A stretch of 64,000 nucleotides of DNA from Terriglobia bacterium (GTDB lineage: Bacteria; Acidobacteriota; Terriglobia; 20CM-2-55-15): positions 96,001 through 160,000 of the forward strand of contig CAXWPJ010000009.1 of NCBI GenBank assembly GCA_963664115.2, given 5' to 3'. The position numbers and the translations under genes are program-made. Within the stretch, counting starts at the first letter, position 1, and each line of letters starts with the position of its first letter. The notes beneath the pieces were generated by a model. The model had not been told where the DNA came from. It ran no database searches and was given only the letters and a program-made list of their open reading frames with translations. Shown piece after piece: positions 117 to 14,301 of the stretch.

Positions 117-968
117 ATGCAGAAGTCGAGAGCTGTTTGCTTCAGTCTTGCCGCTTTCCTTTGTGTTTTGGTGACGGTCCCGATTGCGTGGGGCCAGAAC
201 GTAGCACCCGGCCCAGAGGAATGGACAGACGCCGAAAGGGAAGTTTTCCTGCAGACGGCCGAAATCCTTTCGGTCGAAGACATCGGAATCGGCATCACTC
301 GCGCCCAACGTGCGACGCTCAGCGACGGCAGCGTCACACACGACGCTCAGATCCAGGCGATCGACGTGTTCCGGCGCGGCATAACGCAACTGCAGGGCAC
401 CGTGGTAGTCAACTTCAAGGACAGTTACAAGTTCAACATCGCCGGATACCGTCTGGACCGCTTGCTGGATCTCAACATGGTCCCTGTCTACGTGGAACGA
501 ACGGTGCGGCGCAGCAGATGCTCCGTATCGTGGTGGGTGGACGACGTTCAAATGATGGAACTGGATCGTTTCAACAACGGGATCGATCCTCCCGATATCG
601 AGGCCTGGAACGATCAGATGAGCAGTGCTCGGATTTTCACGAAACTAATTTACAACACCGACCCTAATCTCGGAAATTTTCTGATCACCAGCGACTGGGA
701 ACTCCACCTGATCGACTTCACACGCGCTTTCCGGGTGTTTGATCGCCTTCGAGAACCTGAAAACGTCACACCACGCATTGAGCGGCGCTTCTATGAGGGC
801 CTTCGTGCCTTGAACAAAGAGCGGCTGGAGGAGGTCATGGACGGAATGCTTACCGGCAGTGAGATGGACGGCGTTCTCCATCGACGGGACCTCATTCTGG
901 AGATACTGGACGCCCAGATCGCAGAGAGGGGCGAATCCGCGGTTGTTTACGACGTGCCGGGGCAATGA
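117..968 (+). CDS. Exported atypical kinase-fold protein (PI3/4-kinase- or FAM20-like)
   Basis: Signal peptide (VCFSLAAFLCVLVTVPIAWG-Q). Kinase-like motifs AGYRLDRLLDLNMVP, catalytic-loop-like IYNTDPNLGNFLI and metal-binding-like LIDFTRAF. Start set at MQKSRA by the AGGAG RBS. Confidence 0.65.
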   Translation: MQKSRAVCFSLAAFLCVLVTVPIAWGQNVAPGPEEWTDAEREVFLQTAEILSVEDIGIGITRAQRATLSDGSVTHDAQIQAIDVFRRGITQLQGTVVVNFKDSYKFNIAGYRLDRLLDLNMVPVYVERTVRRSRCSVSWWVDDVQMMELDRFNNGIDPPDIEAWNDQMSSARIFTKLIYNTDPNLGNFLITSDWELHLIDFTRAFRVFDRLREPENVTPRIERRFYEGLRALNKERLEEVMDGMLTGSEMDGVLHRRDLILEILDAQIAERGESAVVYDVPGQ

Positions 969-989
969 TTCACTTTGAGAGAGCGACCT

Positions 990-2291
990 GTGTATCGCGT
1001 TAAATCAAAGTTCGGAATCGGAACGCTGTTGCTGGCCATAGCTCTGATGTGGGCTCCGGTTCCCCTCCTGCGGAGCCAGGACGGGGAACGCATCCTGGCA
1101 ATGGCCGACATCCATGGCAACTTTGAGGCGGCCGCATCCCTGCTGCAGCGTAATGGCGTGATCGATGACGCATTGAACTGGGTCGGTGACAAGACCACGT
1201 TCGTACAGACCGGAGACTTCACCGACCGGGGGCCTGAAGTCCGGCGGCTGATGGATTTCCTGATCTCTCTGGATGGTGATGCCCCGGACGACAGTGTGAT
1301 CGTTCTCCTGGGCAATCACGAGAGCCTGAACATCATTGGGGACTTGCGCGACGTGACTGCGGCCGATTACGCAAGCTTCGCCGATTCGGATTCCGAGAGT
1401 CGCCGGCAGGAGGCTTTCCAAGCGTATGTCGATTTTGAGAAGCGACGCTCCGAACGACTCGGGAAGCCTCCAGTGTCGCCAACTCCAGAGATCGAGCGGG
1501 CCTGGATGGACGCGCATCCTCCCGGATTCCTCGAACACCGCGAAGCGTTCGGTCCTGAGGGAAAATACGGTCGATGGATCCGAGAGCTATCCACGGTGGC
1601 GAAGGTGGACGAAACTCTTTTTCTCCATGCCGGAATCCATCCCTCGCTTGCCGAGCTCTCCATCGATGAGATCAATGCCCGGGTCCGCGACGAGATCCGC
1701 GCCTTCGACCAGTCCTTCGAGTACCTGGTCTCCCGGGGGATCGCGCTGTCCTATTTCACCCTTGACGAACTCCTCGAAGCAGCGCGGGAGTCGCTTGATT
1801 TTGCGAATCGAACCAACGACCCGGAAAACCGAGATAGTGAGGCACAACGGGATGTTCAAGTCCTGGAGGGCCTGCTTGGCCTGGGAAGCTGGTTGATGGT
1901 CCACCCTGACGGCGTTCTCTGGTACCGGGGTTATAGCAATTGGTCCGATGAAGAAGGCCCAGCCCAAATCGAACAGTTGCTCGACAGCTACGATGTGGAA
2001 CAAATCGTTGTCGGCCACAGTCCCCAACTGCCCGGGGAGATTCGCGTTCGATTCGATGGACGCCTTTACCTGGCCGATACGGGGATGCTTTCAAGCTACT
2101 ACGCGGGAGGACGCGCTTCGATGTTGGAGATCCGGGATGGCGTCATTCGCGCAATCTATCTGGATGCCGAAGCGCGGCTGATGCAACCGGCATTGTCGCG
2201 GGCAAGGGCTCGGGCCAGCGTGGCCCTCGATCAGCCCAGGCAAATCATCGCGGTCAAGGGCCGGGCCACAGCCACGATTCCGGCCCTCTAA
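990..2291 (+). CDS. Exported calcineurin-like metallophosphoesterase (Shewanella-like phosphatase)
   Basis: Motifs ADIHG, GDFTDRG, GNHE, HAG, GHS and LADTG; hydrophobic N-terminal signal. Start is 975 or 990. Confidence 0.85.
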   Translation: MYRVKSKFGIGTLLLAIALMWAPVPLLRSQDGERILAMADIHGNFEAAASLLQRNGVIDDALNWVGDKTTFVQTGDFTDRGPEVRRLMDFLISLDGDAPDDSVIVLLGNHESLNIIGDLRDVTAADYASFADSDSESRRQEAFQAYVDFEKRRSERLGKPPVSPTPEIERAWMDAHPPGFLEHREAFGPEGKYGRWIRELSTVAKVDETLFLHAGIHPSLAELSIDEINARVRDEIRAFDQSFEYLVSRGIALSYFTLDELLEAARESLDFANRTNDPENRDSEAQRDVQVLEGLLGLGSWLMVHPDGVLWYRGYSNWSDEEGPAQIEQLLDSYDVEQIVVGHSPQLPGEIRVRFDGRLYLADTGMLSSYYAGGRASMLEIRDGVIRAIYLDAEARLMQPALSRARARASVALDQPRQIIAVKGRATATIPAL

Positions 2292-2300
2292 CCTTCACTT

Positions 2301-5057
2301 ATGTCCCACTGGATTGAGCGTCTCTTGAGCCTGCGGCGGGGAGAGCTCGGGGGTGGACTCCTCTTCTTCGCGTACTACTTCCTGATCATATCCTCTTATG
2401 TCGTCGGTCAGGTCGCTCGGGACGCCTTGTTTCTTGATCGCTTCGCTGCCGATCAGCTTCCGTACGCCGACATCGCGATAGCTGCGATGGTGGGTCTCGT
2501 TGTGGCCGGCTATATCCGGGCCGGCCGCCGGGTCGACCTTCGAGAGCTGCTGGTCGGTAGCCTTGCACTCTTTGCGGCTATTGCCTTCTTTTTCTGGTGG
2601 GCGATCCGCACGGTTCAATGGGCCTGGCTGATTCCAGCCCTCTACGTTTGGATCGGAATCTTTGGCGTTCTGGCCATCGCGCAGGTCTGGACCTTAGCGA
2701 ACTTCATGCTAACCACACGCGAAGCCAAACGGGTGTTTGGACTCGTCGGGGCAGGTGGAATTCTGGGCGGTATCTTCGGAGGCTTCCTATCCAATGCCAT
2801 TGCACGCAGCTTAGGGACCGAGAGTCTCCTGCTCCTGGTCGCAGCGTTCCCCGCGGTCTGCGTGATGCTTGTGATTCAGATTTGGCGTCAAGAATCCAAG
2901 GATACTGACCTTGTCGTTAACGACTCCAGCATGACGAGTTTAGAGAGTTCCTGGAGTCTGCTAGGCAGTTTGCAAATCATCCGTTCTTCTTCCCACCTGA
3001 AATCCATTGCAGCGCTGATTTGCATCACCTCCGTCGTCACCACGGCAGCAGGCTGGCAGTTCAAGGCAATCGCTAAGGCGTCCATCGTCGAAACCGACGC
3101 ACTGGCAGCCTTTCTGGGCTCGTTTCAGGGATACGCTGGCATTCTGGCCCTCTTGGCGCAATTGTTGTTGACCACCAGGGTGCTGCAGCGCTTCGGCGTC
3201 GGCGCGGTATTGTTCGCTCTCCCCGTCGCTCTCGTCCTGGGCACCGCCGGAGTTCTCGTTTTCGGGAGCCTATCGGCCGTGATTCTTCTCAAGGGAAGCG
3301 ATAAGGTGTTGCGTTATTCCCTCGACAACTCCGCGCTTCAACTGCTCTACCTCCCGGTGCCGACCGGTATCAAAGTCCAGGTCAAATCTTTCATCGACAC
3401 CGTCATCTGGCGACTTGGAGATGGAATGGCGGGAGTCACGCTGCTCGTCTTCGTGACGTATCTTCAGTTCACGCCTCGACAGGTGGGTTGGATTAACCTG
3501 ATGGCTATCGTTCTGTGGCTCTTTTTTGCAGACCGGGCACGGCAACAGTATCTGGCAACTCTTGGCGAGCGGGTACAGGAACACCGGATCGATACGGAAA
3601 GCACGTCGGTTCCGGTTCTTGATCGATCGACGAGCTCTGTTCTGGCGACGAAGCTCGACTCGGGCAACGCGGAGGAAATCTTATACGGACTGCGCCTGTT
3701 CGAAGTCGGGTACCACCAGACCGCCCACCCGTCGATCGTGGGCCTCATACACCATGACTCGGCCGAGGTCCGGGCGAGAGCTGTAGCAATTCTCAACGCT
3801 GTCGGTAACGCTTCGGTGAAGGACGAGATCGAAGCGCTTCTTGAAGATAACGCTCTAAGCGTGCGTACCGAAGCTCTGTTGTACTTGACACAACACACCG
3901 ACGTCGATCCCTTAGCCCGCATCCGTGAGCTGGGAGACTTTCCGGACTCCACCATCCGGTCCGCTATCGTCGCTTTCCTGAGTCGGCCTGGAAGTGCCCA
4001 GAACCTGGACGGCGCAAGGCTCATGTTGGACATGATGCTGGACGAGAAGGGATCGTCCGGACGCGGGACCCGTCTGGAAGCCGCCCGGTTGATCGGCCTC
4101 CTCCCTGCTGAGTTCGAAAACCAGGTATCGAGGCTCCTCGCAGATTCCGATCCGAAAATCGCAGGCTACGGCATATCCGCTGCCGGAAGCCTCCGTCGTC
4201 AGAAATTCGTTCATGCCTTACTGGAGCGGCTGGGCGATCCCGACAACGGTCAGGCCTCGGCCAGCGCACTTGAGAACTTTGGGGATAGAATCGTGGGGAC
4301 GCTCGGCGATTATCTCAGAGATTCCGAGGTTTCCATCGCCATCCGCCTTGAAATCCCAACGGTGTTGACCAGGATCGACACACTGGGGGTGCCGGACGCG
4401 TTGATTGAAAGTCTCCTCGAAGGAAACACGACTCTGCGCCACCGTATCCTTGCAGCGATAAACAAATATCAACAATCGCACCCGGACGTCCGTATCGATC
4501 CGCAATGGATAGAAACCGTTCTGGCTGCTGAGATCCTCGGCCATTACCGCTCATACCAGGCTTTGGGATTACTCGGGAGTGCCTTGAAGGGGAACGACCC
4601 TTCACTGGCCGCACTCGAAGAATCCATAGCTCACGAGCGGGAGCGAATCTTCCGCCTGCTGGGAGTTCTCTTCCCTGAACACGACATGCATGCGGCCTAC
4701 TTGGGAATTACCGCACACAACTCCCGGGTTCGCGACAACACGCTGGAGTTCCTCGACAGCATGCTCCGCCCTGAACTGCGTTCTCTAGTCATCCCGTTGA
4801 TCGACGACGGCGTTACCGTCAACGAAAGAGTTAGCCTGGCCAATGATGTCGTGGGAACCGGCGTGGAAACAGAAGAAGAAGCGGTCGAGATGCTCATCCA
4901 CAGCGGGGATCCCTGGTTGAAGTCGTGCGCAGCTTACGCCATCGGTGCTTTGGGGCTGAAGTCGCTCGAAAGCGAACTGGACGCATGGCAAGACGACCCG
5001 GACCCCCTCCTGTCAGAAACTGTCCGTCAGGCAAAACTGCGCCTGGCTAAAATCTAA
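2301..5057 (+). CDS. NTP/NDP-exchange (TLC/Npt-like) MFS transporter fused to HEAT repeats
   Basis: About 12 TM segments with ARDALFL, REAKRVFGLVGAGG, QLLYLPVP and KSFIDT motifs, followed by HEAT/PBS-like helical repeats (EVRARAV, DPWLKSCAAYAIG). Confidence 0.8.
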   Translation: MSHWIERLLSLRRGELGGGLLFFAYYFLIISSYVVGQVARDALFLDRFAADQLPYADIAIAAMVGLVVAGYIRAGRRVDLRELLVGSLALFAAIAFFFWWAIRTVQWAWLIPALYVWIGIFGVLAIAQVWTLANFMLTTREAKRVFGLVGAGGILGGIFGGFLSNAIARSLGTESLLLLVAAFPAVCVMLVIQIWRQESKDTDLVVNDSSMTSLESSWSLLGSLQIIRSSSHLKSIAALICITSVVTTAAGWQFKAIAKASIVETDALAAFLGSFQGYAGILALLAQLLLTTRVLQRFGVGAVLFALPVALVLGTAGVLVFGSLSAVILLKGSDKVLRYSLDNSALQLLYLPVPTGIKVQVKSFIDTVIWRLGDGMAGVTLLVFVTYLQFTPRQVGWINLMAIVLWLFFADRARQQYLATLGERVQEHRIDTESTSVPVLDRSTSSVLATKLDSGNAEEILYGLRLFEVGYHQTAHPSIVGLIHHDSAEVRARAVAILNAVGNASVKDEIEALLEDNALSVRTEALLYLTQHTDVDPLARIRELGDFPDSTIRSAIVAFLSRPGSAQNLDGARLMLDMMLDEKGSSGRGTRLEAARLIGLLPAEFENQVSRLLADSDPKIAGYGISAAGSLRRQKFVHALLERLGDPDNGQASASALENFGDRIVGTLGDYLRDSEVSIAIRLEIPTVLTRIDTLGVPDALIESLLEGNTTLRHRILAAINKYQQSHPDVRIDPQWIETVLAAEILGHYRSYQALGLLGSALKGNDPSLAALEESIAHERERIFRLLGVLFPEHDMHAAYLGITAHNSRVRDNTLEFLDSMLRPELRSLVIPLIDDGVTVNERVSLANDVVGTGVETEEEAVEMLIHSGDPWLKSCAAYAIGALGLKSLESELDAWQDDPDPLLSETVRQAKLRLAKI

Positions 5058-5151: not shown

Positions 5152-6228
5152 CTAAAGTCGCTCTTCCCGCCAGAGGCCCAGGGCCTTTTGCGCTGCGCGA
5201 TCTGAAAAACTGAACAGCACCGCACCTTTTTCGCTTTGATGGGAGACCGGATGCCATGGCGGGACTACAAACACGTCGCGTTCTTTCCACTCAATGGTCA
5301 TGTTGCCAATCTGGCTTCGCCCGCTGCCTTCGGTGGGACTGAACACTGTCCCATCCGTAGAACGATACAGCTTCCCGTTAAACCCCGGCGGTAGTAACTG
5401 CATAAAACCCGCGATCGACGGCAGCGGGTATCCGCCTGTGAGCGGATTGACGAACTGCAGCTTGACGCCATGACAGTCATCGACAGGGCCGTTCTTGTAC
5501 AGCTGTTCGACGACTTCCCGGCTTCGCGAATACGGGTAGTTGAAGATCGGCGATGCCATCGTGGAGGGCTGGTGTTCGACGGGAAGCAAATTGTTTCCAT
5601 ACCGCATCCCGGCATCTTCTTCTTTCTTGGTCACCGGATAAGTGGGTTCCGGCCACTCTTCGGTAAAGGTGACGCCCATCATGTCGATGAACGGGTTATC
5701 CAGGCCGTCCATCCAGATTGTAGGCTCGTTCCCGAGATTCCCGTGGTCGTGAAAAGTCCATGAAGGCGTTAAGACGAAATCACCCGGTTGCATCATGGAT
5801 CGCTCACCGTCGACCGAGGTATAGCCACCCCCGTCCCCCTCCAACATGAACCGGAAGGCCGAGGCCGTGTGGCGATGCGCCGGGGCAACCTCCTGCGGCA
5901 TCACCAACTGGACTGCCGCAAACAGGCTCTGTGTGATCCAGGACTCGCCCCGAAGTCCGGGGTTTTCCAGTATCAACACCCGGCGTTCCGCCTGATCGGG
6001 TGTGATCAAATCCGCGGCCTCCATGAGCATTGGACGGATTTCATCGTAGCGCCAAATCGCCGGTACGCAGCGTGGTATCGGTTCCGCTGTTGCGAGATCC
6101 CCGAAGACCTCCCACAATGGCGCGAGGTTCAGCGCGTCCAGCTGATCATGGAATGCCTTCAGCTCCTCGGTCAGCTCCGGCTTTTGAAAGCTAAAGGCTT
6201 GCCCTTTTTTTTTATTCGCTTCCTTCAC
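5152..6228 (-). CDS. gtdA: Gentisate 1,2-dioxygenase (bicupin)
   Basis: AERRVLILENPGL, APAHRHTASAFRF, TPSWTFHDHGN, WMDGLD and LFSFSDR motifs. Confidence 0.85.
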   Translation of the reverse strand: MKEANKKKGQAFSFQKPELTEELKAFHDQLDALNLAPLWEVFGDLATAEPIPRCVPAIWRYDEIRPMLMEAADLITPDQAERRVLILENPGLRGESWITQSLFAAVQLVMPQEVAPAHRHTASAFRFMLEGDGGGYTSVDGERSMMQPGDFVLTPSWTFHDHGNLGNEPTIWMDGLDNPFIDMMGVTFTEEWPEPTYPVTKKEEDAGMRYGNNLLPVEHQPSTMASPIFNYPYSRSREVVEQLYKNGPVDDCHGVKLQFVNPLTGGYPLPSIAGFMQLLPPGFNGKLYRSTDGTVFSPTEGSGRSQIGNMTIEWKERDVFVVPPWHPVSHQSEKGAVLFSFSDRAAQKALGLWREERL

Positions 6229-6731
6229 GTCTCACGCTCCTCGGGCAAGTATACAGTTGCCTGATGCCCGTTTCTGTTCGATCAACCGGCCGGTACCTGA
6301 TCTCCCGTCGCTCCAATGCTCAGGATCGTCGCGACGATCGTGGCTTCCAAAAAAGTTTGGCTGAGACCCTCGACCGTGAAGCCTGCCACTAGGCGGATTG
6401 AAGCAGTCCGGCGAATCGGGAGTTGGAGACTCGTGGTAAATTTGCGTTCAACCGTCTTTTCGAGAAGACCTTTCCTGTCTACAACCAGCGAACAAACCGC
6501 GGCTTCCACCGGGGGGGACCCGAACCAAAACCCGATCGCGAAGTCACCGCTTTCCCCTAGAAGGCAAGGTCGTTTCCCATTAGAATGCACCCCCATGCCC
6601 TTCTCCCAGGATTCGAAGCGCACTCGTTCCGTTTGTCATGTTCTTCAGCGCCAAGTCTTTTCTACTTTCGCTTATGCGCGGTTCCGTTCTTTGGACAGAG
6701 CCCATCTTCGACGAAAGGCATAAAGGTGCAC

Positions 6732-7841
6732 GTGAACACTAAATTGAGCAAAACAAAGTTTATTTCGATCGCTGCTTCCTTTGCGTTATTTATGGCTGGG
6801 GTGGGTGTCGTGAACCCGGTACGGGCCCAGGCCCAGAACGTCCCCCGGTATGCGGTCGATCCGTTCTGGCCCAAACTGCCTCTGCCCGACCGATGGATCA
6901 CGGGCGGTCTGGGCGGAATGTGCATCGACGGCCGCGATCATTTGTACATCCTCAATCGGGGGAACGTAGACCCCGAAGATCTGGATGGAGCCAGCATGGC
7001 GCCTTCGGTGATCGAGTTCGATCCCGATGGAAATGTCGTCCGCTCTTGGGGAGACCCCTCCATGTTGGGAGACCGACTGCATGATTGCCATGTCGACCAA
7101 GACCAGAACGTGTGGATCATCGCTTCCGCAACAGGCATCGCACAGAAGTACTCCAGCGATGGCAGCGAGCTCCTGCTCCAAATCGGGGAGGCGGGCGTTT
7201 ATGACTCCTCGGACGGGACCCGAGAAGGCCAGGCCCTGAATTCAAACCGTGCCCAGTTCTTTCTGCCCGCCAGCATCGATTTGGACGCCGCAACCGGCGA
7301 CATCTATATCGCCGATGGCGAGCTACCCGGAGGAAACCAGCGAATTGCCGTACTCGACCGCAACGGGCGGTTTCTCCGCCAGTGGCCGCTCCACCGCAGC
7401 GATGCCGATGGCAACATCGTCCCCTTACCTCACTGTCTTCGCTTAAGCGACGACGGCCTTGTGTACGTCTGTGACCGGGAGGCGGATCGGATCCAGGTAT
7501 TCGATCAAATGGGGAACTTCATCCGGAACATCGACGTGCCCTGGCAACCCTATACATCGCCCGCGGGCCGTCTGAGCGGGATGCGTGGCACTGCCGTCGT
7601 CCTGGCTTTCTCCCACGATCCAGGTCAGCGCCTCATGTTCGTCGCGAATCAGCTTAGTTCGGAAATCGATATCCTGGATCGCCAGACCGGACAGGTCCTG
7701 TCGAGTTTCGGTGGAGGTCCCGGACGCTATCCGGGGCAGTTCACGCTACCGCACGGCATCGCGGTCGATTCAGCGGGCAATGTATACGTTGCCGAACAGG
7801 AAGGACGACGCATTCAGAAGTTCAGAATCGTAAATCCTTAG
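6732..7841 (+). CDS. Exported NHL-repeat beta-propeller protein (PAL-like)
   Basis: Signal peptide; YAVDPFWPK, PHC, VYVCDRE and PHGIAVDSAGNVYVAE motifs. Start codon uncertain (GTG at 6726 or 6732). Confidence 0.8.
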   Translation: MNTKLSKTKFISIAASFALFMAGVGVVNPVRAQAQNVPRYAVDPFWPKLPLPDRWITGGLGGMCIDGRDHLYILNRGNVDPEDLDGASMAPSVIEFDPDGNVVRSWGDPSMLGDRLHDCHVDQDQNVWIIASATGIAQKYSSDGSELLLQIGEAGVYDSSDGTREGQALNSNRAQFFLPASIDLDAATGDIYIADGELPGGNQRIAVLDRNGRFLRQWPLHRSDADGNIVPLPHCLRLSDDGLVYVCDREADRIQVFDQMGNFIRNIDVPWQPYTSPAGRLSGMRGTAVVLAFSHDPGQRLMFVANQLSSEIDILDRQTGQVLSSFGGGPGRYPGQFTLPHGIAVDSAGNVYVAEQEGRRIQKFRIVNP

Positions 7842-8015
7842 GAATGCTGAAAGGAGCAGCGGAGGTCAGCCGGAACTTCGCTGATGTCTCTCACAACCCG
7901 TTCTGGTGATTACTATCGGACGGGCACACCCCGGGGCAAACTGCCGGGTCATGACCCCGTACCAGGCCAGCAGGCCAGTCGGGTGTCCGAAAAACTAAGG
8001 TTCAGAGGATCAAAG

Positions 8016-8462
8016 ATGGTCATCTACGGTGTCGCATTGTTGGCCAGCTGTCTGTTGGCGGGCATGCTTGCAGGAGAAGTATTGGGAGTGCTGCTCGGAG
8101 TCAGCGCCAATGTCGGTGGTGTCGGCATTGCGATGCTCTTGCTGGTTCTTGCTTGCAGCTCGACGCGATTGAAATCCCTTGTTGATGGAGCGTCCGGCAC
8201 CGGAATCAAATTCTGGAGCGCCATGTATATCCCGATCGTCGTCGCCATGGCCGCCAGTCAGAACGTTGCGGCAGCGGCAGCCGGAGGATTGCTGGCCCTG
8301 GTTGCCGGGAGCGGTGCAGTCGTCGTTAGTTTCGCTCTGGTGCCCGTGCTCAGCAGAATAGGTTCGAGCGGCGGGACTGGCGGCCGAAGTGGCGGCGATG
8401 CTGTCGAAGAAAATCAACAAGGCTCTACGGATAAGCCCGAATCAGAGACCGGAGCCCCATGA
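8016..8462 (+). CDS. madL: Malonate transporter subunit MadL
   Basis: MVIYGVALLA, ANVGGVGIAMLLL and FWSAMYIPIVVAMAASQNV; AGAGGA RBS. Confidence 0.9.
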   Translation: MVIYGVALLASCLLAGMLAGEVLGVLLGVSANVGGVGIAMLLLVLACSSTRLKSLVDGASGTGIKFWSAMYIPIVVAMAASQNVAAAAAGGLLALVAGSGAVVVSFALVPVLSRIGSSGGTGGRSGGDAVEENQQGSTDKPESETGAP

Positions 8463-9220
8463 TGGAATTGTTGCTAAAGGTCGCTGACAGAAACTATCTC
8501 GTGGTTGCCTTCGCCGTGGTAGGCGCGACGGTGTGGATATCGTATCTCATATCCGACAGGCTAACGCGCGGTCGCATCCACGGTTCGGCCATAGCCATCG
8601 TTGCGGGCCTGATCGCTGCTTATTGGGGCGGCACACTGACCGGTGGTCAGATCGGGGTGGCCAACATCCCTTTATTGGCCGGCATCGGTGTCATGGGCGG
8701 CGGCATGCTGAGAGATTTCGCCATAGTGGCTACTGCTTTTGGTGTCCGTTTGAGTGAACTCAAGAAAGCGGGACTTGCCGGCGTGATTTCAATTGTTGCG
8801 GGTGTCGTGGTTTCATTTGTAGTGGGGGCGATCGTTGCGGTTGCGTTTGGCTATAGCGATGCCATCAGCATCACGACTATCGGCGCGGGAGCGGTGACCT
8901 ATATTGTGGGTCCGGTAACAGGTGACGCTATTGGAGCTGACAATGCAGTCATCGCACTGAGCGTTGCGGCCGGACTGGTTAAATCGATACTGGTCATGGT
9001 CGGAACACCGATGGTCGCACCGTTTATCGGTCTCAATAATCCCCAATCAGCCATGGTTTTTGGCGGGCTCATGGGCACGACCAGTGGTGTCGCCGGTGGT
9101 TTGGCGGCGACCGATCCCAAGCTGGTGCCCTATGGTGCGATGACCGCTACTTTCTATACGGGCTTTGGTGCCCTGATGGCTCCATCGGTCTTGTACTTCA
9201 TCGTCAGAGCTCTCACCTGA
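8459..9220 (+). CDS. madM: Malonate transporter subunit MadM
   Basis: GRIHGSAIAI, GGGMLRDFAIVATAFG and LVPYGAMTATFYTG; ATGA overlap with madL. Confidence 0.9.
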   Translation: MMELLLKVADRNYLVVAFAVVGATVWISYLISDRLTRGRIHGSAIAIVAGLIAAYWGGTLTGGQIGVANIPLLAGIGVMGGGMLRDFAIVATAFGVRLSELKKAGLAGVISIVAGVVVSFVVGAIVAVAFGYSDAISITTIGAGAVTYIVGPVTGDAIGADNAVIALSVAAGLVKSILVMVGTPMVAPFIGLNNPQSAMVFGGLMGTTSGVAGGLAATDPKLVPYGAMTATFYTGFGALMAPSVLYFIVRALT

Positions 9221-9268
9221 TCGACCGCGACAGAATCCTTAAATAAGACGTTGCCGCAAAGGCCATCC

Positions 9269-10795
9269 ATGAACGATCCGTCAATCGAAACTCAAGGCTT
9301 CTTTCCCAGGCTGAGCGACACAAACACCAAAGTCGCACTGGCCTTTGCCCAAGGCAGCTGTACATACGCCGAGCTGAATCGACGTGTCCATGAGTTTGCC
9401 TGTGGATTGTTAGGGGATGGGATGGATCTGTCCCAACAGCGGATCGCTTTTATCATGCCGGCGAGCCTCGATTATGTGACCACCTTGCTCGGCATTTGGA
9501 GAGCCGGGGGCATCGCGGTGCCTTTGAACGTAAGCGCCACAATCCCTGAGCTGGACCACGCGCTGTCCTCGGCCGGTGTAAGCCGTCTGATCGCAGACTC
9601 AGAATATCAAATGAAACTTGAAGGACTCTGTTCTTCGATCGACCTAAAAATGTCTACGGTAGAAGAAGTATTACAAGACGAACTCCGACCACTGCCGACC
9701 ATCAGTGATGGCCGTCGGGCGATGATTTTATTTACCAGTGGAACCACGAACAAACCGAAAGGAGTGATCAGCACACACAGCAACATCCGTTCACAGATCA
9801 GCACGCTTATCGAGGCTTGGGCCTGGGAGGAAGACGACACGATTCCACTGTTCTTACCCCTCCACCATATCCATGGAATTATCAATATATTGTGTTGTGG
9901 ATTGTGGTCGGGCGCCTCGGTTCATCTCTTCCCGAAATTCGAGTTGCCGACCATTCTTGCCCAGGTGGCCCGCCGTGAGTATTCCGTTTTCATGGCGGTG
10001 CCCACTATCTATATCAAATTGATCCAATACCTTGACACCGTGTCCGAACAGGATAGAAGCAAGATCTGCGCTGGATTTAAGGCCATGCGACTCAACGTTT
10101 CAGGTTCGGCAGCGTGCCCGGTCAATCTTTTCAATAAATGGTTGGAGCTTACCGGTCAAACCTTATTGGAACGCTATGGAATGACGGAAATCGGCATGGG
10201 GCTTTCGAATCCGTATACAGGAGAACGCCGGGCAGGGGCAGTAGGCGTTCCCTTGCCGGGTGTGGAGGCGGCGCTGTTTGATGAGGACAACAAGCTCGTA
10301 GTTGAGGAAAATGTTCCCGGTGAAATCAGAATAAAGGGACCCAATGTCTTTCTCGAATACTGGAATGATGCCAAAGCGACCAGAGAAAGTTTTCATGACG
10401 GTTGGTTCTGTACCGGCGATATTGCGGTTTTGGAGGCAGGCTACTACCGGATTATGGGTCGATCTTCGGTCGACATCATCAAGTCTGGTGGTTATAAATT
10501 GTCCGCCCTGGAAATCGAAGGGGCCCTCCTCAACCATGAAAATATCAGCGAATGTGCAGTCATCGGCGTGGCAGATGAGACCTGGGGAGAAGCGGTTACG
10601 GCCTTCGTTGTTCTGAAGCCGGATACCACGCTGAGTCTCGGGGAATTGAAAGCCTGGTGTAAAGGGCGCACATCCGGGTACAAGATCCCCAAAACCTTGA
10701 GGATAGTAGATGCGCTCCCACGAAACGCCATGGGCAAGGTTGCAAAACCCACGCTTAAGGAATGGGTGCGGGCCGACCCCGCAGCGGATCGATGA
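9269..10795 (+). CDS. matB: Acyl-CoA synthetase, malonyl-CoA synthetase (MatB/ACSF3)-like
   Basis: AMP-binding motif FTSGTTNKPKG, ERYGMTEIGM, DIIKSGGYK and PRNAMGKV; directly after madLM. Confidence 0.75.
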   Translation: MNDPSIETQGFFPRLSDTNTKVALAFAQGSCTYAELNRRVHEFACGLLGDGMDLSQQRIAFIMPASLDYVTTLLGIWRAGGIAVPLNVSATIPELDHALSSAGVSRLIADSEYQMKLEGLCSSIDLKMSTVEEVLQDELRPLPTISDGRRAMILFTSGTTNKPKGVISTHSNIRSQISTLIEAWAWEEDDTIPLFLPLHHIHGIINILCCGLWSGASVHLFPKFELPTILAQVARREYSVFMAVPTIYIKLIQYLDTVSEQDRSKICAGFKAMRLNVSGSAACPVNLFNKWLELTGQTLLERYGMTEIGMGLSNPYTGERRAGAVGVPLPGVEAALFDEDNKLVVEENVPGEIRIKGPNVFLEYWNDAKATRESFHDGWFCTGDIAVLEAGYYRIMGRSSVDIIKSGGYKLSALEIEGALLNHENISECAVIGVADETWGEAVTAFVVLKPDTTLSLGELKAWCKGRTSGYKIPKTLRIVDALPRNAMGKVAKPTLKEWVRADPAADR

Positions 10796-10916
10796 TTCGC
10801 TGCTGTCGGGGCATTAATCTTGGGCCCGTTGCCGAAGACGGTTATACTGGCGCCGTTCAGAACCACATCCGAATCCTGTGTTTCAACTACTTGCTCCTTA
10901 TGGGAGGACCCACGTC

Positions 10917-12104
10917 ATGCAGAAACCGAAATCTTATGTCGCGCTGGCCTGTCTCGCAGTTCTGGTAACGCTCGGCTGTGGGGCCGGGACCGCGGTCGAG
11001 AGTGCCGCTCCGGACGAGGTGGCCACCGGACCTCAGGCACCGATGTTCGAGGTCGATCCGCTGTGGCCGAAGCCCCTGCCCAACCACTGGATCCTGGGCT
11101 CAACGATAGGCGTCTCAGTAGACTCGCGAGATCACATCTGGGTTATTCACCGGCAAACCACCCTCAATCCGATCACGGAGAGCGGAGCCGCAGCTGATCC
11201 TCCGATCAGCGTGTGCTGCATCCCCGCCCCGAACGTTCTGGAGTTTGATCAGGAAGGGAACCTGGTGAGTTCATGGGGCGGCCCGGGCGAAGGATACGAG
11301 TGGCCCTCGTCCAATCATGGAATTACGGTTGACTACATGGATAACGTTTGGATTGGTGGCAACGGGGAAACCGATGCACATATCTTAAAGTTCGCGCGCG
11401 ATGGAACCTTCCTGATGCAGATTGGCCGCGCCGGCATGAACGGCGGCAGCAACGATCTGGAAAACTTCGGGCGCGTGGCCAAGATTTCCGTCGACCCAAA
11501 CACGAACGAAGCCTATATCGCCGATGGCTATCTCAACAAACGCGTCGCCGTGATCGATGCGAGCACGGGAGAGTTCAAGCGTTACTGGGGCGCCTACGGC
11601 AACATGCCCGACGATACTGATCTCGGACCATACGACCCGGACGCGGAGCCCGCCCAGCAGTTCCGCAATCCTGTCCATTGCGCCGAGATCTCGAATGACA
11701 ACTTCGTTTATGTGTGCGACCGCGTGAACAATCGCATTCAACAATTCCAGACCGATGGCACGTTCGTCGCCGAAGTGATGATCGCGCCGCAAACGCTGGG
11801 CGCGGGTTCGGTATGGGATCTCACGTTTTCGAGAGATCCCGAACAGACCTATATCTATCTCGCCGATGGCGTCAATGAGAAGGTATACATCATTCAACGT
11901 GACACCCTGGAAGTCCTGACCAGCTTTGGCGATGGCGGACGCTATCCGGGCCAGTTCTTCGGCGTCCACAGCATCGCGACCGACTCGTCCGGTAACATTT
12001 ATACGACAGAGACCTACGAAGGAAAGCGTCTACAGAAATTCGTAAACATGGGTCTCGGTCCCGTCACCGAGCAGGATCAGGGCGTGGTCTGGCCCGACAA
12101 TTAA
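10917..12104 (+). CDS. NHL-repeat beta-propeller lipoprotein
   Basis: Lipobox VTLGC; FEVDPLWPKPLP, HGITVD, VHC and VHSIATDSSGNIYTTE motifs; GGAGG RBS. Confidence 0.85.
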   Translation: MQKPKSYVALACLAVLVTLGCGAGTAVESAAPDEVATGPQAPMFEVDPLWPKPLPNHWILGSTIGVSVDSRDHIWVIHRQTTLNPITESGAAADPPISVCCIPAPNVLEFDQEGNLVSSWGGPGEGYEWPSSNHGITVDYMDNVWIGGNGETDAHILKFARDGTFLMQIGRAGMNGGSNDLENFGRVAKISVDPNTNEAYIADGYLNKRVAVIDASTGEFKRYWGAYGNMPDDTDLGPYDPDAEPAQQFRNPVHCAEISNDNFVYVCDRVNNRIQQFQTDGTFVAEVMIAPQTLGAGSVWDLTFSRDPEQTYIYLADGVNEKVYIIQRDTLEVLTSFGDGGRYPGQFFGVHSIATDSSGNIYTTETYEGKRLQKFVNMGLGPVTEQDQGVVWPDN

Positions 12105-12237
12105 GACAGAAGGGGCGGTGATTCGCTTGTATTACCGCTCCTTCTGATCCTCGCAGTTGCGACGGCACTCTCAGTGGCCGCGTCCCGCGCCCATAGACCA
12201 TGGACCCCGCAGCCAAACTCTCCGCTGATTTCCCTGT

Positions 12238-14301
12238 ATGAGCTGGTTTGAACACGCATCGATCGATTACGCCTCTTTGTCCAAAGCGAGATCGGCTGAA
12301 ATCAAGGTACAACTGAGCCGTCTCGGGGAGTCTGGCGATCTGGCCCATAGGTGGTCTAGAGTTTCAAAACAGATACTACAACCGTCCGACCCATTTGAGA
12401 TTCACAGAGATCTGTTTCGCGAAAACTACCGGGAGTGGAGCCCGGGTCGCGGCCCGGAACCCGCCGTTCTTCCCGAACAGGCCAAGATATCAGCGTCGAA
12501 CCTCGGAATGTGGTTGACGGAATTCGGCTTTGGGCGGTATTCGGAGCTTCACGATTTCAGTGTAAATCAACGAGAAGAGTTTACAAAAAGGGCGGTAGAT
12601 AGACTCAACATTCGGTTTCAAAAGGAATTTGATCAGGTATTGGATCTCACACAAGGAGTGGAGCGGCCCTCTTGGTTCAAGGGAGCCAAGATGAATATTG
12701 TTGACAGCATTTTTGATGTCGGACTCGAAACTGAGTCAGAACGAACCGCAATCGTATTTCAACGCGAAGGCAGTGAAGGAAACACGCCCGTTGAACGCTG
12801 GTCGCTGGGACAACTCAAGGCCTTGTCGGGTCGTGTGGCCAACGGATTGACGAAGATGGGTCTTGGGCCCGGCGATCGTGTGGCCATCGATATGCCCATG
12901 ACAGCGGATTGTGTGGCCATTTATTTGGGCATCGTTCGAGCCGGCATGTGTGTGGTCTCTGTTGCCGACAGTTTTGCGGCTGAAGAAATAGCGACACGAC
13001 TTCGAATATCAGGGGCAAAAGCGATCTTCACTCAAGACGTAATCTTGCGTGGCGGAAAGATTGTCCCTTTATATAAAAAGGTGGTCAACGCCAAAGCGCC
13101 GACGGCCATAGTTCTTCCGGCCCTGAAGTCATCGCAGACCAGACTCCGTGAAGAAGATATGACTTTCGATCTTTTTCTTTCCGCCGATCAGGAATTCGAA
13201 ACCGCCGGCCGGGAACCGGGGAACGCGATCAACATTCTGTTTTCCTCCGGTACAACGGGTGACCCCAAGGCGATACCCTGGGATCACACGACCGCTTTTC
13301 GCTGCGCATTGGACGGGTTTGTTCACCAGAACATACAACCGGGAGACGTTGTGGCCTGGCCGACGAACGTGGGCTGGATGATGGGGCCGTGGCTGATATT
13401 TGCCGCCCTGATAAACGAAGGCTGCATTGCCCTTTATGAAGGCATGCCTCACACGCGCCGCTTCGGCATGTTTGTCGAGAACTCGAGGGTAAATCTGTTG
13501 GGTGTAGTGCCCAGTCTGGTTAAAGTGTGGAAAAACAGTGAGTGCATGACGGGGCTGGATTGGAGCGCTATCAAAGCATTCAGTTCAACGGGAGAATCTT
13601 CAAACCGTGAGGAAATGCTATTCCTGATGTCGTTGGCCGGTTATAAACCCGTTATCGAATATTGCGGGGGGACCGAAATCGGTGGGAGTTATGTATCTTC
13701 AACAGTCATTCAACCCAACTGCCCCTCTTACTTCTCAGCAAAATCAATCGGCATGGATTTCAGAATTCTGAACGAAGGCGGCCAGAATTCCCATACGGGC
13801 GAGGTCTATCTGGTTCCACCTGCGATCGGACTATCGACTCAACTCTTGAACAAGGATCATCATGATGTCTACTTCAAAGACTGCCCAACCGGAAGCGACG
13901 GGGAAGTGCTCCGCCGTCACGGAGATGAAATGCAGGTTTTGCACGGTGAGTATTTTAGGGCGCTGGGCAGAGCCGATGACACGATGAACCTTGGAGGAAT
14001 CAAAATAAGCTCGGTGGAACTCGAAAGCGTCATGAACCGCGTCGAAGGCGTTGCTGAAACAGCCGCAATCGCGGTAACCCCCAAATCGGGGGGAACAAGC
14101 CAACTCGTAGCTTATGCAGTAACCGAACTCGGCAGATGGAGTGATGGGGGCGAGTTAAAGACAGCACTCCAAGACCAGATCCGTCAACACCTGAATCCTC
14201 TTTTTAAAATCACTGCTGTAGTTGTCGTAGATGAACTCCCGAGAACAGCCTCGAACAAAGTAATGAGGCGGGTCTTGAGAGCCGAATGTGAGGCTCAGTA
14301 A
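12238..14301 (+). CDS. AMP-dependent acyl-CoA synthetase (acetyl-CoA synthetase-like, AAE17/18 type)
   Basis: LFSSGTTGDPKAIPW, WPTNVGWMMGPW, EYCGGTEIGG, GRADDTMNLGG and LPRTASNKVMRR. Confidence 0.85.
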   Translation: MSWFEHASIDYASLSKARSAEIKVQLSRLGESGDLAHRWSRVSKQILQPSDPFEIHRDLFRENYREWSPGRGPEPAVLPEQAKISASNLGMWLTEFGFGRYSELHDFSVNQREEFTKRAVDRLNIRFQKEFDQVLDLTQGVERPSWFKGAKMNIVDSIFDVGLETESERTAIVFQREGSEGNTPVERWSLGQLKALSGRVANGLTKMGLGPGDRVAIDMPMTADCVAIYLGIVRAGMCVVSVADSFAAEEIATRLRISGAKAIFTQDVILRGGKIVPLYKKVVNAKAPTAIVLPALKSSQTRLREEDMTFDLFLSADQEFETAGREPGNAINILFSSGTTGDPKAIPWDHTTAFRCALDGFVHQNIQPGDVVAWPTNVGWMMGPWLIFAALINEGCIALYEGMPHTRRFGMFVENSRVNLLGVVPSLVKVWKNSECMTGLDWSAIKAFSSTGESSNREEMLFLMSLAGYKPVIEYCGGTEIGGSYVSSTVIQPNCPSYFSAKSIGMDFRILNEGGQNSHTGEVYLVPPAIGLSTQLLNKDHHDVYFKDCPTGSDGEVLRRHGDEMQVLHGEYFRALGRADDTMNLGGIKISSVELESVMNRVEGVAETAAIAVTPKSGGTSQLVAYAVTELGRWSDGGELKTALQDQIRQHLNPLFKITAVVVVDELPRTASNKVMRRVLRAECEAQ

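Follow-up and report, generated by a model that had tools for sequence, protein, structure and literature searches.

A putative periplasmic phosphorylation operon in an acidobacterial genome: a Fam20-fold kinase-like protein, a PPP phosphatase and an NTT-HEAT carrier

The periplasm is regarded as free of ATP, and reversible phosphorylation is unexpected there. What, then, could a kinase-like protein with an export signal be doing in an operon with a signal-bearing phosphatase and a nucleotide carrier? The question is raised by three genes at positions 117–5057 of a 64,000-nucleotide (nt) stretch of DNA from Terriglobia bacterium (contig CAXWPJ010000009.1 of assembly GCA_963664115.2, positions 96,001–160,000), hereafter the window. 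An earlier note on this DNA, made from the letters alone, had described them as tightly spaced, co-oriented genes for a signal-peptide protein with atypical kinase motifs, a signal-peptide Shewanella-like PPP phosphatase and a TLC/Npt-like carrier fused to HEAT repeats, and this description was borne out. Gaps of 6 nt and 9 nt separate the three co-oriented open reading frames, whose products are called K, P and T here.

Our reading, which we hold to be about equally likely to be right or wrong, is that nucleotide export by T feeds periplasmic phosphorylation by K, reversed by P. T would export a nucleotide to the periplasm, probably ATP, with ADP taken back (we infer both the nucleotide and the direction); there, the Fam20-fold protein K would transfer phosphate to an acceptor in the periplasm or envelope, and P would take it off again. 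The acceptors may be proteins, as a Fam20C-like writer and a protein-phosphatase-like eraser would suggest; a glycan, as with Fam20B, is our second guess.

Positions 117–968, + strand: gene 1 (K), open reading frame of 283 residues; Fam20-fold kinase-like protein of the Gln/Asn clade, predicted to be exported, signal-like residues 1–26.
Within gene 1, + strand: altered residues Q80 (nt 354) and N107 (nt 435), in place of Lys and Glu.
Within gene 1, + strand: retained residues D102 (nt 420), D182 (nt 660), N187 (nt 675) and D200 (nt 714).
Positions 975–2291, + strand: gene 2 (P), open reading frame of 438 residues with a TTG start; Shewanella-like PPP phosphatase, predicted to be exported, motifs ADIHG, GDFTDRG, GNHE, HAG, GHS and ADTG.
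Positions 2301–5057, + strand: gene 3 (T), open reading frame of 918 residues.
Positions 2301–3575, + strand: N-terminal NTT/TLC carrier domain of gene 3 (residues 1–425), with Pfam TLC, TIGR00769 and NTT1 structure matches.
Positions 3576–5057, + strand: C-terminal HEAT-repeat region of gene 3, presumably cytoplasmic (HEAT_2, E 4e-16).

Fold, catalytic residues and predicted export of K and P

Sequence library scans of K gave weak matches only. With an AlphaFold model of K (pLDDT 90), the ten best Foldseek matches were all Fam20C (E 5e-11, TMq 0.64), followed by Fam20A, Fam20B and PI4K II. The K-family profile A4 (56 rows) likewise matched Fam20A at E 3e-13, Fam20C at E 3e-8 and Fam20B at E 3e-6. 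The family is large, with 2179 representatives at E 1e-10 or better, and nearly every one of the 79 GTDB loci that contain K relatives carries the label Acidobacteriota. Bacterial clusters with Fam20C Pfam matches are present in the ESM Atlas, and the homology is therefore visible in databases.

K has the Fam20-type atypical kinase fold, the Mn-binding acid before αC (D102), the catalytic Asp and the DFG-type Asp, the last two in the motifs NTDPNLGN (D182, N187) and IDFT (D200). Among 283 domain rows from 278 proteins, a sample biased to the clade of the query and with 6–8 gaps per column, D102 is kept in 271, D182 in 272, N187 in 271 and D200 in 274. In the profile alignment, D102 is aligned with the Fam20C glutamate, and the alignment of K with Fam20A has a one-residue gap in the D102 stretch. 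Glu306 of Fam20C is essential for catalysis according to PMC5865150, and the Mn-binding Glu is lost in the pseudokinase Fam20A, where the equivalent is Gln258, according to PMC7948968.

The Fam20 feature that K fails to show is the pair formed by the β3 lysine and the αC glutamate, both of which have roles in Fam20C: K has Q80 and N107 instead, a point overlooked in the earlier note. Given these two residues, the gene 1 product can be called a kinase only putatively. At the two positions, 215 of the 283 rows have Gln and Asn, against 38 in which a basic residue (Lys or Arg) is paired with an acidic one (Glu or Asp). In a FastTree tree of 159 domains, built with those two columns removed, the Gln/Asn members form one side of a single branch (support 99, one change), and 97–100% of this clade retain the metal and catalytic residues. 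Outside it, NTT-linked K domains have His/Gln, His/Asn or Gly/Asp at the pair (L249, L253, L254, L257 and L258), and the Lys/Glu pair was therefore lost more than once. At a further locus, L250:5351-12878, a phosphatase gene is followed by five K paralogs in tandem, with an NTT divergent from them; in the first paralog, Arg replaces the catalytic Asp.

How the altered protein came to lie in this operon is suggested by a sister genus, whose operon has the identical K-P-T order and a K of the Lys/Glu type. Identity to the sister-genus operon is 53–54% for P, 67% for T and 37–38% for K, while K is 54–62% identical to stand-alone Gln/Asn genes. Because P and T are close to the sister-genus operon while K is closer to the stand-alone genes, a Gln/Asn enzyme appears to have supplanted a Lys/Glu kinase at this position; that order of events presumes Lys/Glu to be the ancestral state, as in Fam20. 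The genome has a single K-family gene, and no match to CotH or to K2, a second kinase-fold family described below, was found in it; there is therefore no active paralog for K to regulate in a Fam20A-like role. Mainly because K occupies the slot of a Lys/Glu kinase and has no active paralog to regulate, we read it as active; the retained metal and catalytic residues, together with the operon slot, suggest that it may do the job of its Lys/Glu relatives.

P matches Metallophos (E 4e-13) and Rhilph (E 1e-7), and its best PDB match is the Shewanella phosphatase 1v73 (E 3e-25), so that by profile match P is closest to Shewanella PPI among solved PPPs. The PPP motif set given in PMC535813 comprises GDxHG, GDxxDRG, GNHE, H(A/G)G and the bacterial D(S/T)G; P has this Shelph/PPP set, with Ala as the first residue of the first and last motifs (ADIHG and ADTG). 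An insert lies between GNHE and HAG, which are approximately 100 residues apart.

Both K and P are predicted to be exported, a call that rests on hydropathy and fusion topology. K has one hydrophobic segment (residues 6–24) and a signal-type cleavage site, A-W-G; P has one hydrophobic segment (residues 14–32) and a cleavage site less canonical than that of K. The signals are conserved across both families: an N-terminal hydrophobic stretch occurs in 206 of 217 single-domain K members versus 78 of 217 for whole mature parts. The same holds for 83 of 97 P homologues; among the 14 without one, most have signals cut by the span analyzed. A twin-arginine pattern was observed in 18 of 240 K proteins, some of them unconvincing, versus 26 of 981 body windows. 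In five fusion proteins (P0123, P0124, P0142, P0177 and P0188), a cytoplasmic-type Ser/Thr kinase is followed by a hydrophobic segment and then by a Fam20-like K domain, and their predicted topology therefore places K outside the cytoplasm. These five are receptor-like proteins with a kinase fold on each side of the membrane.

Linkage of the kinase-like gene, the phosphatase and the carrier

We compared 151 genomes of the phylum, each at least 90% complete. K was present in 38 and an NTT in 65; with kin included in the counts, an NTT was found in 38 of 38 K genomes, and K in 0 of 86 genomes without an NTT. By coordinates, 15 of the 38 K genomes place K no more than 10 kb from an NTT, where 1.4 would be expected. 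P is also contained in 12 of the 14 K-NTT loci retrieved, which span nine families and many orders and orientations. In family f9, the sole K genome of 11 is also the sole NTT genome, and the two genes are adjacent. Five further K genomes, including those of the closest stand-alone relatives of K, all have an NTT.

The same association was observed closer to this operon. In a set of 41 related genomes, a close T ortholog (at least 43% identity) occurs in 14, every one of which has K, and in 11 the two genes are neighbors; at the G019 locus, the contig edge falls within P. Excluding four weak K2 matches, K or K2 occurs in 21 of the 23 NTT genomes in this set versus 0 of the 18 without an NTT. 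An NTT was found in 28 of 77 metagenome loci reached through the fused Lys/Glu type; of the 17 that have 2.5 kb of sequence to either side, 10 contain both K and an NTT. The earlier note had looked to co-occurrence elsewhere and to kinase-phosphatase fusions, and both were found: the fusions exist in both orders, K-P and P-K, and in P0121 P is fused to a Gln/Asn-type K. Upstream of a P-K fusion and NTT, the loci L150 and L155 contain adenylate/guanylate cyclase-TPR genes.

Collectively, the K-NTT association is not chance. That the genes are chance neighbors, or together through plain shared ancestry with no functional link, could be argued from the majority of close K relatives, which lack both neighbors. 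We give this account hardly any credence: against it stand the 38 of 38 versus 0 of 86 genomes, the 15 near pairs versus 1.4 expected, the many gene orders, the several NTT clades and the fusions, and the co-occurrence, linkage and fusion counts have already largely refuted it.

The carrier and the competing readings

T contains the TLC domain (PF03219, E 4e-13, 49.5 bits against a cut-off of 21), scores 40 against a cut-off of 387 for TIGR00769, and belongs by its TLC-domain homology and C-terminal HEAT repeats with the NTT-HEAT fusion clade. The T-family profile matches the structures of chlamydial NTT1 (E 6e-45) and plant NTT1 (E 9e-39). T keeps other charged positions in common with NTT1, namely R40, R144, R338, K362 and D366, and its R371 is present in 50 of the 51 K-linked NTTs. 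In a tree of 119 NTT domains, NTTs linked to K, single-domain ones included, occupy at least five distinct regions. NTT-HEAT fusions are widespread in free-living bacteria, with no characterized member, and Acidobacteria appear in the published table (Major, Embley, Williams 2017, PMC5381601); the premise of the earlier note, which tied characterized Npt carriers mainly to parasites and plastids, is thus outdated on distribution.

Several relatives of T are arranged differently. A second NTT of this genome, single-domain, lies beside a lactate permease (L144:7222-8562, contig C12); in L128, a close relative of this NTT comes after a K gene of the Lys/Glu type. In the L113, L114 and L119 assemblies, T is split into two or three open reading frames by a frameshift or stop, which may be real or a sequencing error. 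NTTs with a C-terminal Ig-like (He_PIG) domain are convergent with P-K genes at L173:9849-11543 and L223:9892-11550. In L116 and L117, close T orthologs (66–68%) without K or P are divergent from two cytoplasmic Ser/Thr kinase genes, and K genes are present elsewhere in these genomes.

Other predicted-exported enzymes also adjoin NTTs. K2, with 3264 homologues of approximately 520 residues, has export signals, an intact Lys, no Pfam match and a CtkA/HipA-like fold (E 2e-4), and 23 of 28 K2 genomes have an NTT. In L127, L131, L132, L137, L145, L146, L040 and L263–L266, the neighbor of K2 is always an Omp85 barrel gene, and an exported metallophosphatase is usually present along with one or two NTTs. 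In one clade, single-domain NTTs lie beside NAD-dependent epimerase/dehydratase-like proteins with twin-arginine signals (L227:4778-7290, L231:4695-7238 and L239:2-2488), where they perhaps serve periplasmic NAD(P) supply. An NTT-HEAT operon at L232:9095-12067 ends in a 990-residue PPDK-domain protein with a signal-like N-terminus, and at L142:4692-8526 an NTT follows a SelO gene. Because predicted-exported nucleotide users adjoin nucleotide carrier genes, we infer the direction of these NTTs to be export, counting two unrelated exported kinase families, the Tat-exported NAD enzymes and the exported PPDK-like enzyme, with export predicted in each case. A broader and more doubtful proposal, which we put forward tentatively, is that free-living bacteria run NTTs in reverse, as dedicated exporters feeding periplasmic enzymes, and that this operon unites periplasmic writer, eraser and fuel supply in full, its Fam20-like writer working without the Lys-Glu pair regarded as essential for kinases, a catalytic solution common to a large acidobacterial clade.

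The writer/eraser/fuel interpretation of the earlier note gains from the kinase fold, the export signals and the co-occurrence, but a number of observations weigh against it and against our own reading. According to PMC10654386, K155, E245, E385 and K527 of AtAATP1 are required for ATP transport. T keeps none of the four (D57, G119, G251 and D374 in the same order, mapped through the 9j3j alignment, where a single offset of 84 fits all four), and at most two are kept in each of the 51 K-linked NTTs; this residue set argues against a standard ATP/ADP exchanger. The bacterial NTTs characterized so far import nucleotides or NAD (PMC5381601). K lacks the β3 Lys and αC Glu, and a conserved basic residue specific to the Gln/Asn clade, sought as a Lys substitute, was not found. 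Neither partner lies near 66 of 98 Gln/Asn genes, versus 1 of 46 Lys/Glu genes, the two sets of loci having been chosen by different routes. Of the 79 loci in the first scan, 67 had neither partner, 6 had P, 6 had T and none had both. Two genomes (G013 and G021) have a close T ortholog with no K or P beside it; among the 65 NTT genomes, K is missing from 27, in 21 of which K2 is missing too. The co-occurrence counts include kin, the genomes sampled are all from this one phylum, and no conserved substrate gene was found in the neighborhoods examined.

In a first competing reading, the export logic would hold while the chemistry differed. An active Gln/Asn enzyme might use another donor or orientation, such as another nucleoside triphosphate, ADP, pyrophosphate or a flipped nucleotide for nucleotidyl transfer, with T supplying that molecule. 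The joint loss of Lys and Glu in one clade, with the metal and catalytic residues still at 97–100%, is in keeping with this, as are residue 78 (β3, two before Gln80), which is mostly His, Ser, Ala or Gln, the position after the catalytic Asp, which is Arg in 82% of Lys/Glu members and Pro in K, and the absence from T of the four ATP/ADP-exchange residues; kinase folds that transfer other groups are described in PMC7948968. However, the sister genus pairs a T ortholog, 67% identical, with a Lys/Glu kinase, and the partner is still a phosphomonoesterase, which fits phosphoryl transfer. We consider such chemistry unlikely, if less so than the readings that follow.

Scavenging appears improbable to us; here exported enzymes would act on nucleotides or phosphorylated solutes from the environment, with the NTT importing the product. 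Exported phosphatases are common scavenging enzymes, and some fusion loci adjoin TonB-dependent receptors (L160 and L164). Import is what characterized bacterial NTTs do (PMC5381601). A kinase would nevertheless require an external donor, a kinase fused to a phosphatase is better matched to a reversible mark than to salvage, and nucleotide-catabolism genes are not recurrent in the neighborhoods examined. We see a similarly slim chance of a signaling role, in which the Gln/Asn protein would be a pseudokinase binding a periplasmic nucleotide and an NTT-HEAT(-cNMP) protein would relay the signal to the cytoplasm. Gln/Asn-type domains do occur beyond the membrane segment of receptor-like Ser/Thr kinases, NTT-HEAT genes often adjoin genes for cyclic nucleotide monophosphate (cNMP) domains, histidine kinases and response regulators, and most Gln/Asn genes stand alone. 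In contrast, the catalytic Asp and metal ligands are near-invariant, the genome offers one K gene with no K2 or CotH match and thus no active paralog for a Fam20A-like role, and P retains its metal-binding motifs, with P0121 even joining a P domain to a Gln/Asn K.

Flanking features and relation to known systems

Two further features lie upstream of gene 1.

Positions 70–78, + strand: extended −10 promoter-like site TGATATAAT, from its sequence, genomic rarity and recurrence in L112 and L119.
Positions 106–110, + strand: AGGAG ribosome-binding site of gene 1.

The TGnTATAAT promoter proposed in the earlier note is present as a site and is rare, with 31 occurrences in the 4.89 Mb genome and approximately 0.0004 expected per 116 nt on one strand. 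It recurs upstream of gene 1 in two of three congeneric loci, exactly in L112 and as TGATACAAT in L119, and was not seen in the stretch of the third, L111, that was inspected. A sigma-70 scan upstream of gene 1, with a scanner that requires a −35 box, found nothing. The gene after T encodes a convergent cupin, and no cNMP-binding gene lies downstream of T at this locus. From 5152 to 14301 of the window, the genes look unrelated to the operon: the convergent bicupin (5152–6228), NHL β-propellers with export-like N-termini (6717–7841 and 10878–12104), two small membrane proteins (7884–9220) that may resemble a malonate transporter pair, and two putative acyl-CoA-synthetase-like open reading frames.

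Each part of the operon belongs to a known family; the combined system was not found in the literature searched, and it would be new in kind only if the carrier exports. If our reading is true, the widespread uncharacterized NTT-HEAT carriers gain a function, and a bacterial relative, a possible source, is set beside the animal Fam20 kinases. Whether a kinase fold can catalyze without the lysine-glutamate pair is a question for which the Gln/Asn clade provides a natural experiment. The three genes form a kit expressible in E. coli, which makes reversible periplasmic phosphorylation directly testable. Neither a bacterial Fam20-like kinase nor an NTT-kinase linkage was found reported in the literature searched, a search with most subscription papers outside its reach, and a bacterial member is not described in the Fam20 papers searched.

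Among the Fam20 members compared, Fam20C is a protein kinase, Fam20B a xylosylkinase and Fam20A a pseudokinase. K shares with them fold and profile homology, a predicted export-type signal, the D102 acid before αC, the catalytic Asp and the metal ligands. It differs in being bacterial, with 283 residues, 13–16% identity and three Cys (two within the signal), and in its linkage to phosphatase and carrier genes. Fam20A is the opposite of K, since it keeps the β3 Lys and αC Glu and has lost the Mn-binding Glu. POMK/SgK196 and WNK are active kinases without the canonical β3 lysine, which is relocated; K differs in that a basic residue specific to the Gln/Asn members was not found in its clade. P shares with Shelph phosphatases the PPP signature motifs, D(S/T)G and the best PDB match, 1v73, and differs in its long helical insert and in being paired or fused with a cognate kinase; a Toxoplasma Shelph is located in the endoplasmic reticulum (ER) according to PMC9769683. 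T resembles the NTT-HEAT(-cNBD) clade in its NTT domain, its HEAT repeats and its free-living-type genome, and differs in a locus without a cNBD gene and in lacking the four AtAATP1 transport residues; the paper on that clade (PMC5381601) draws no link to exported kinases or phosphatases. No bacterial equivalent of phosphorylation fed by SLC35B1 was found in the literature searched. SLC35B1 is the ER/Golgi ATP/ADP exchanger that supplies eukaryotic lumenal kinases, and the proposed module would follow the same logic with a carrier, T, of an unrelated family.

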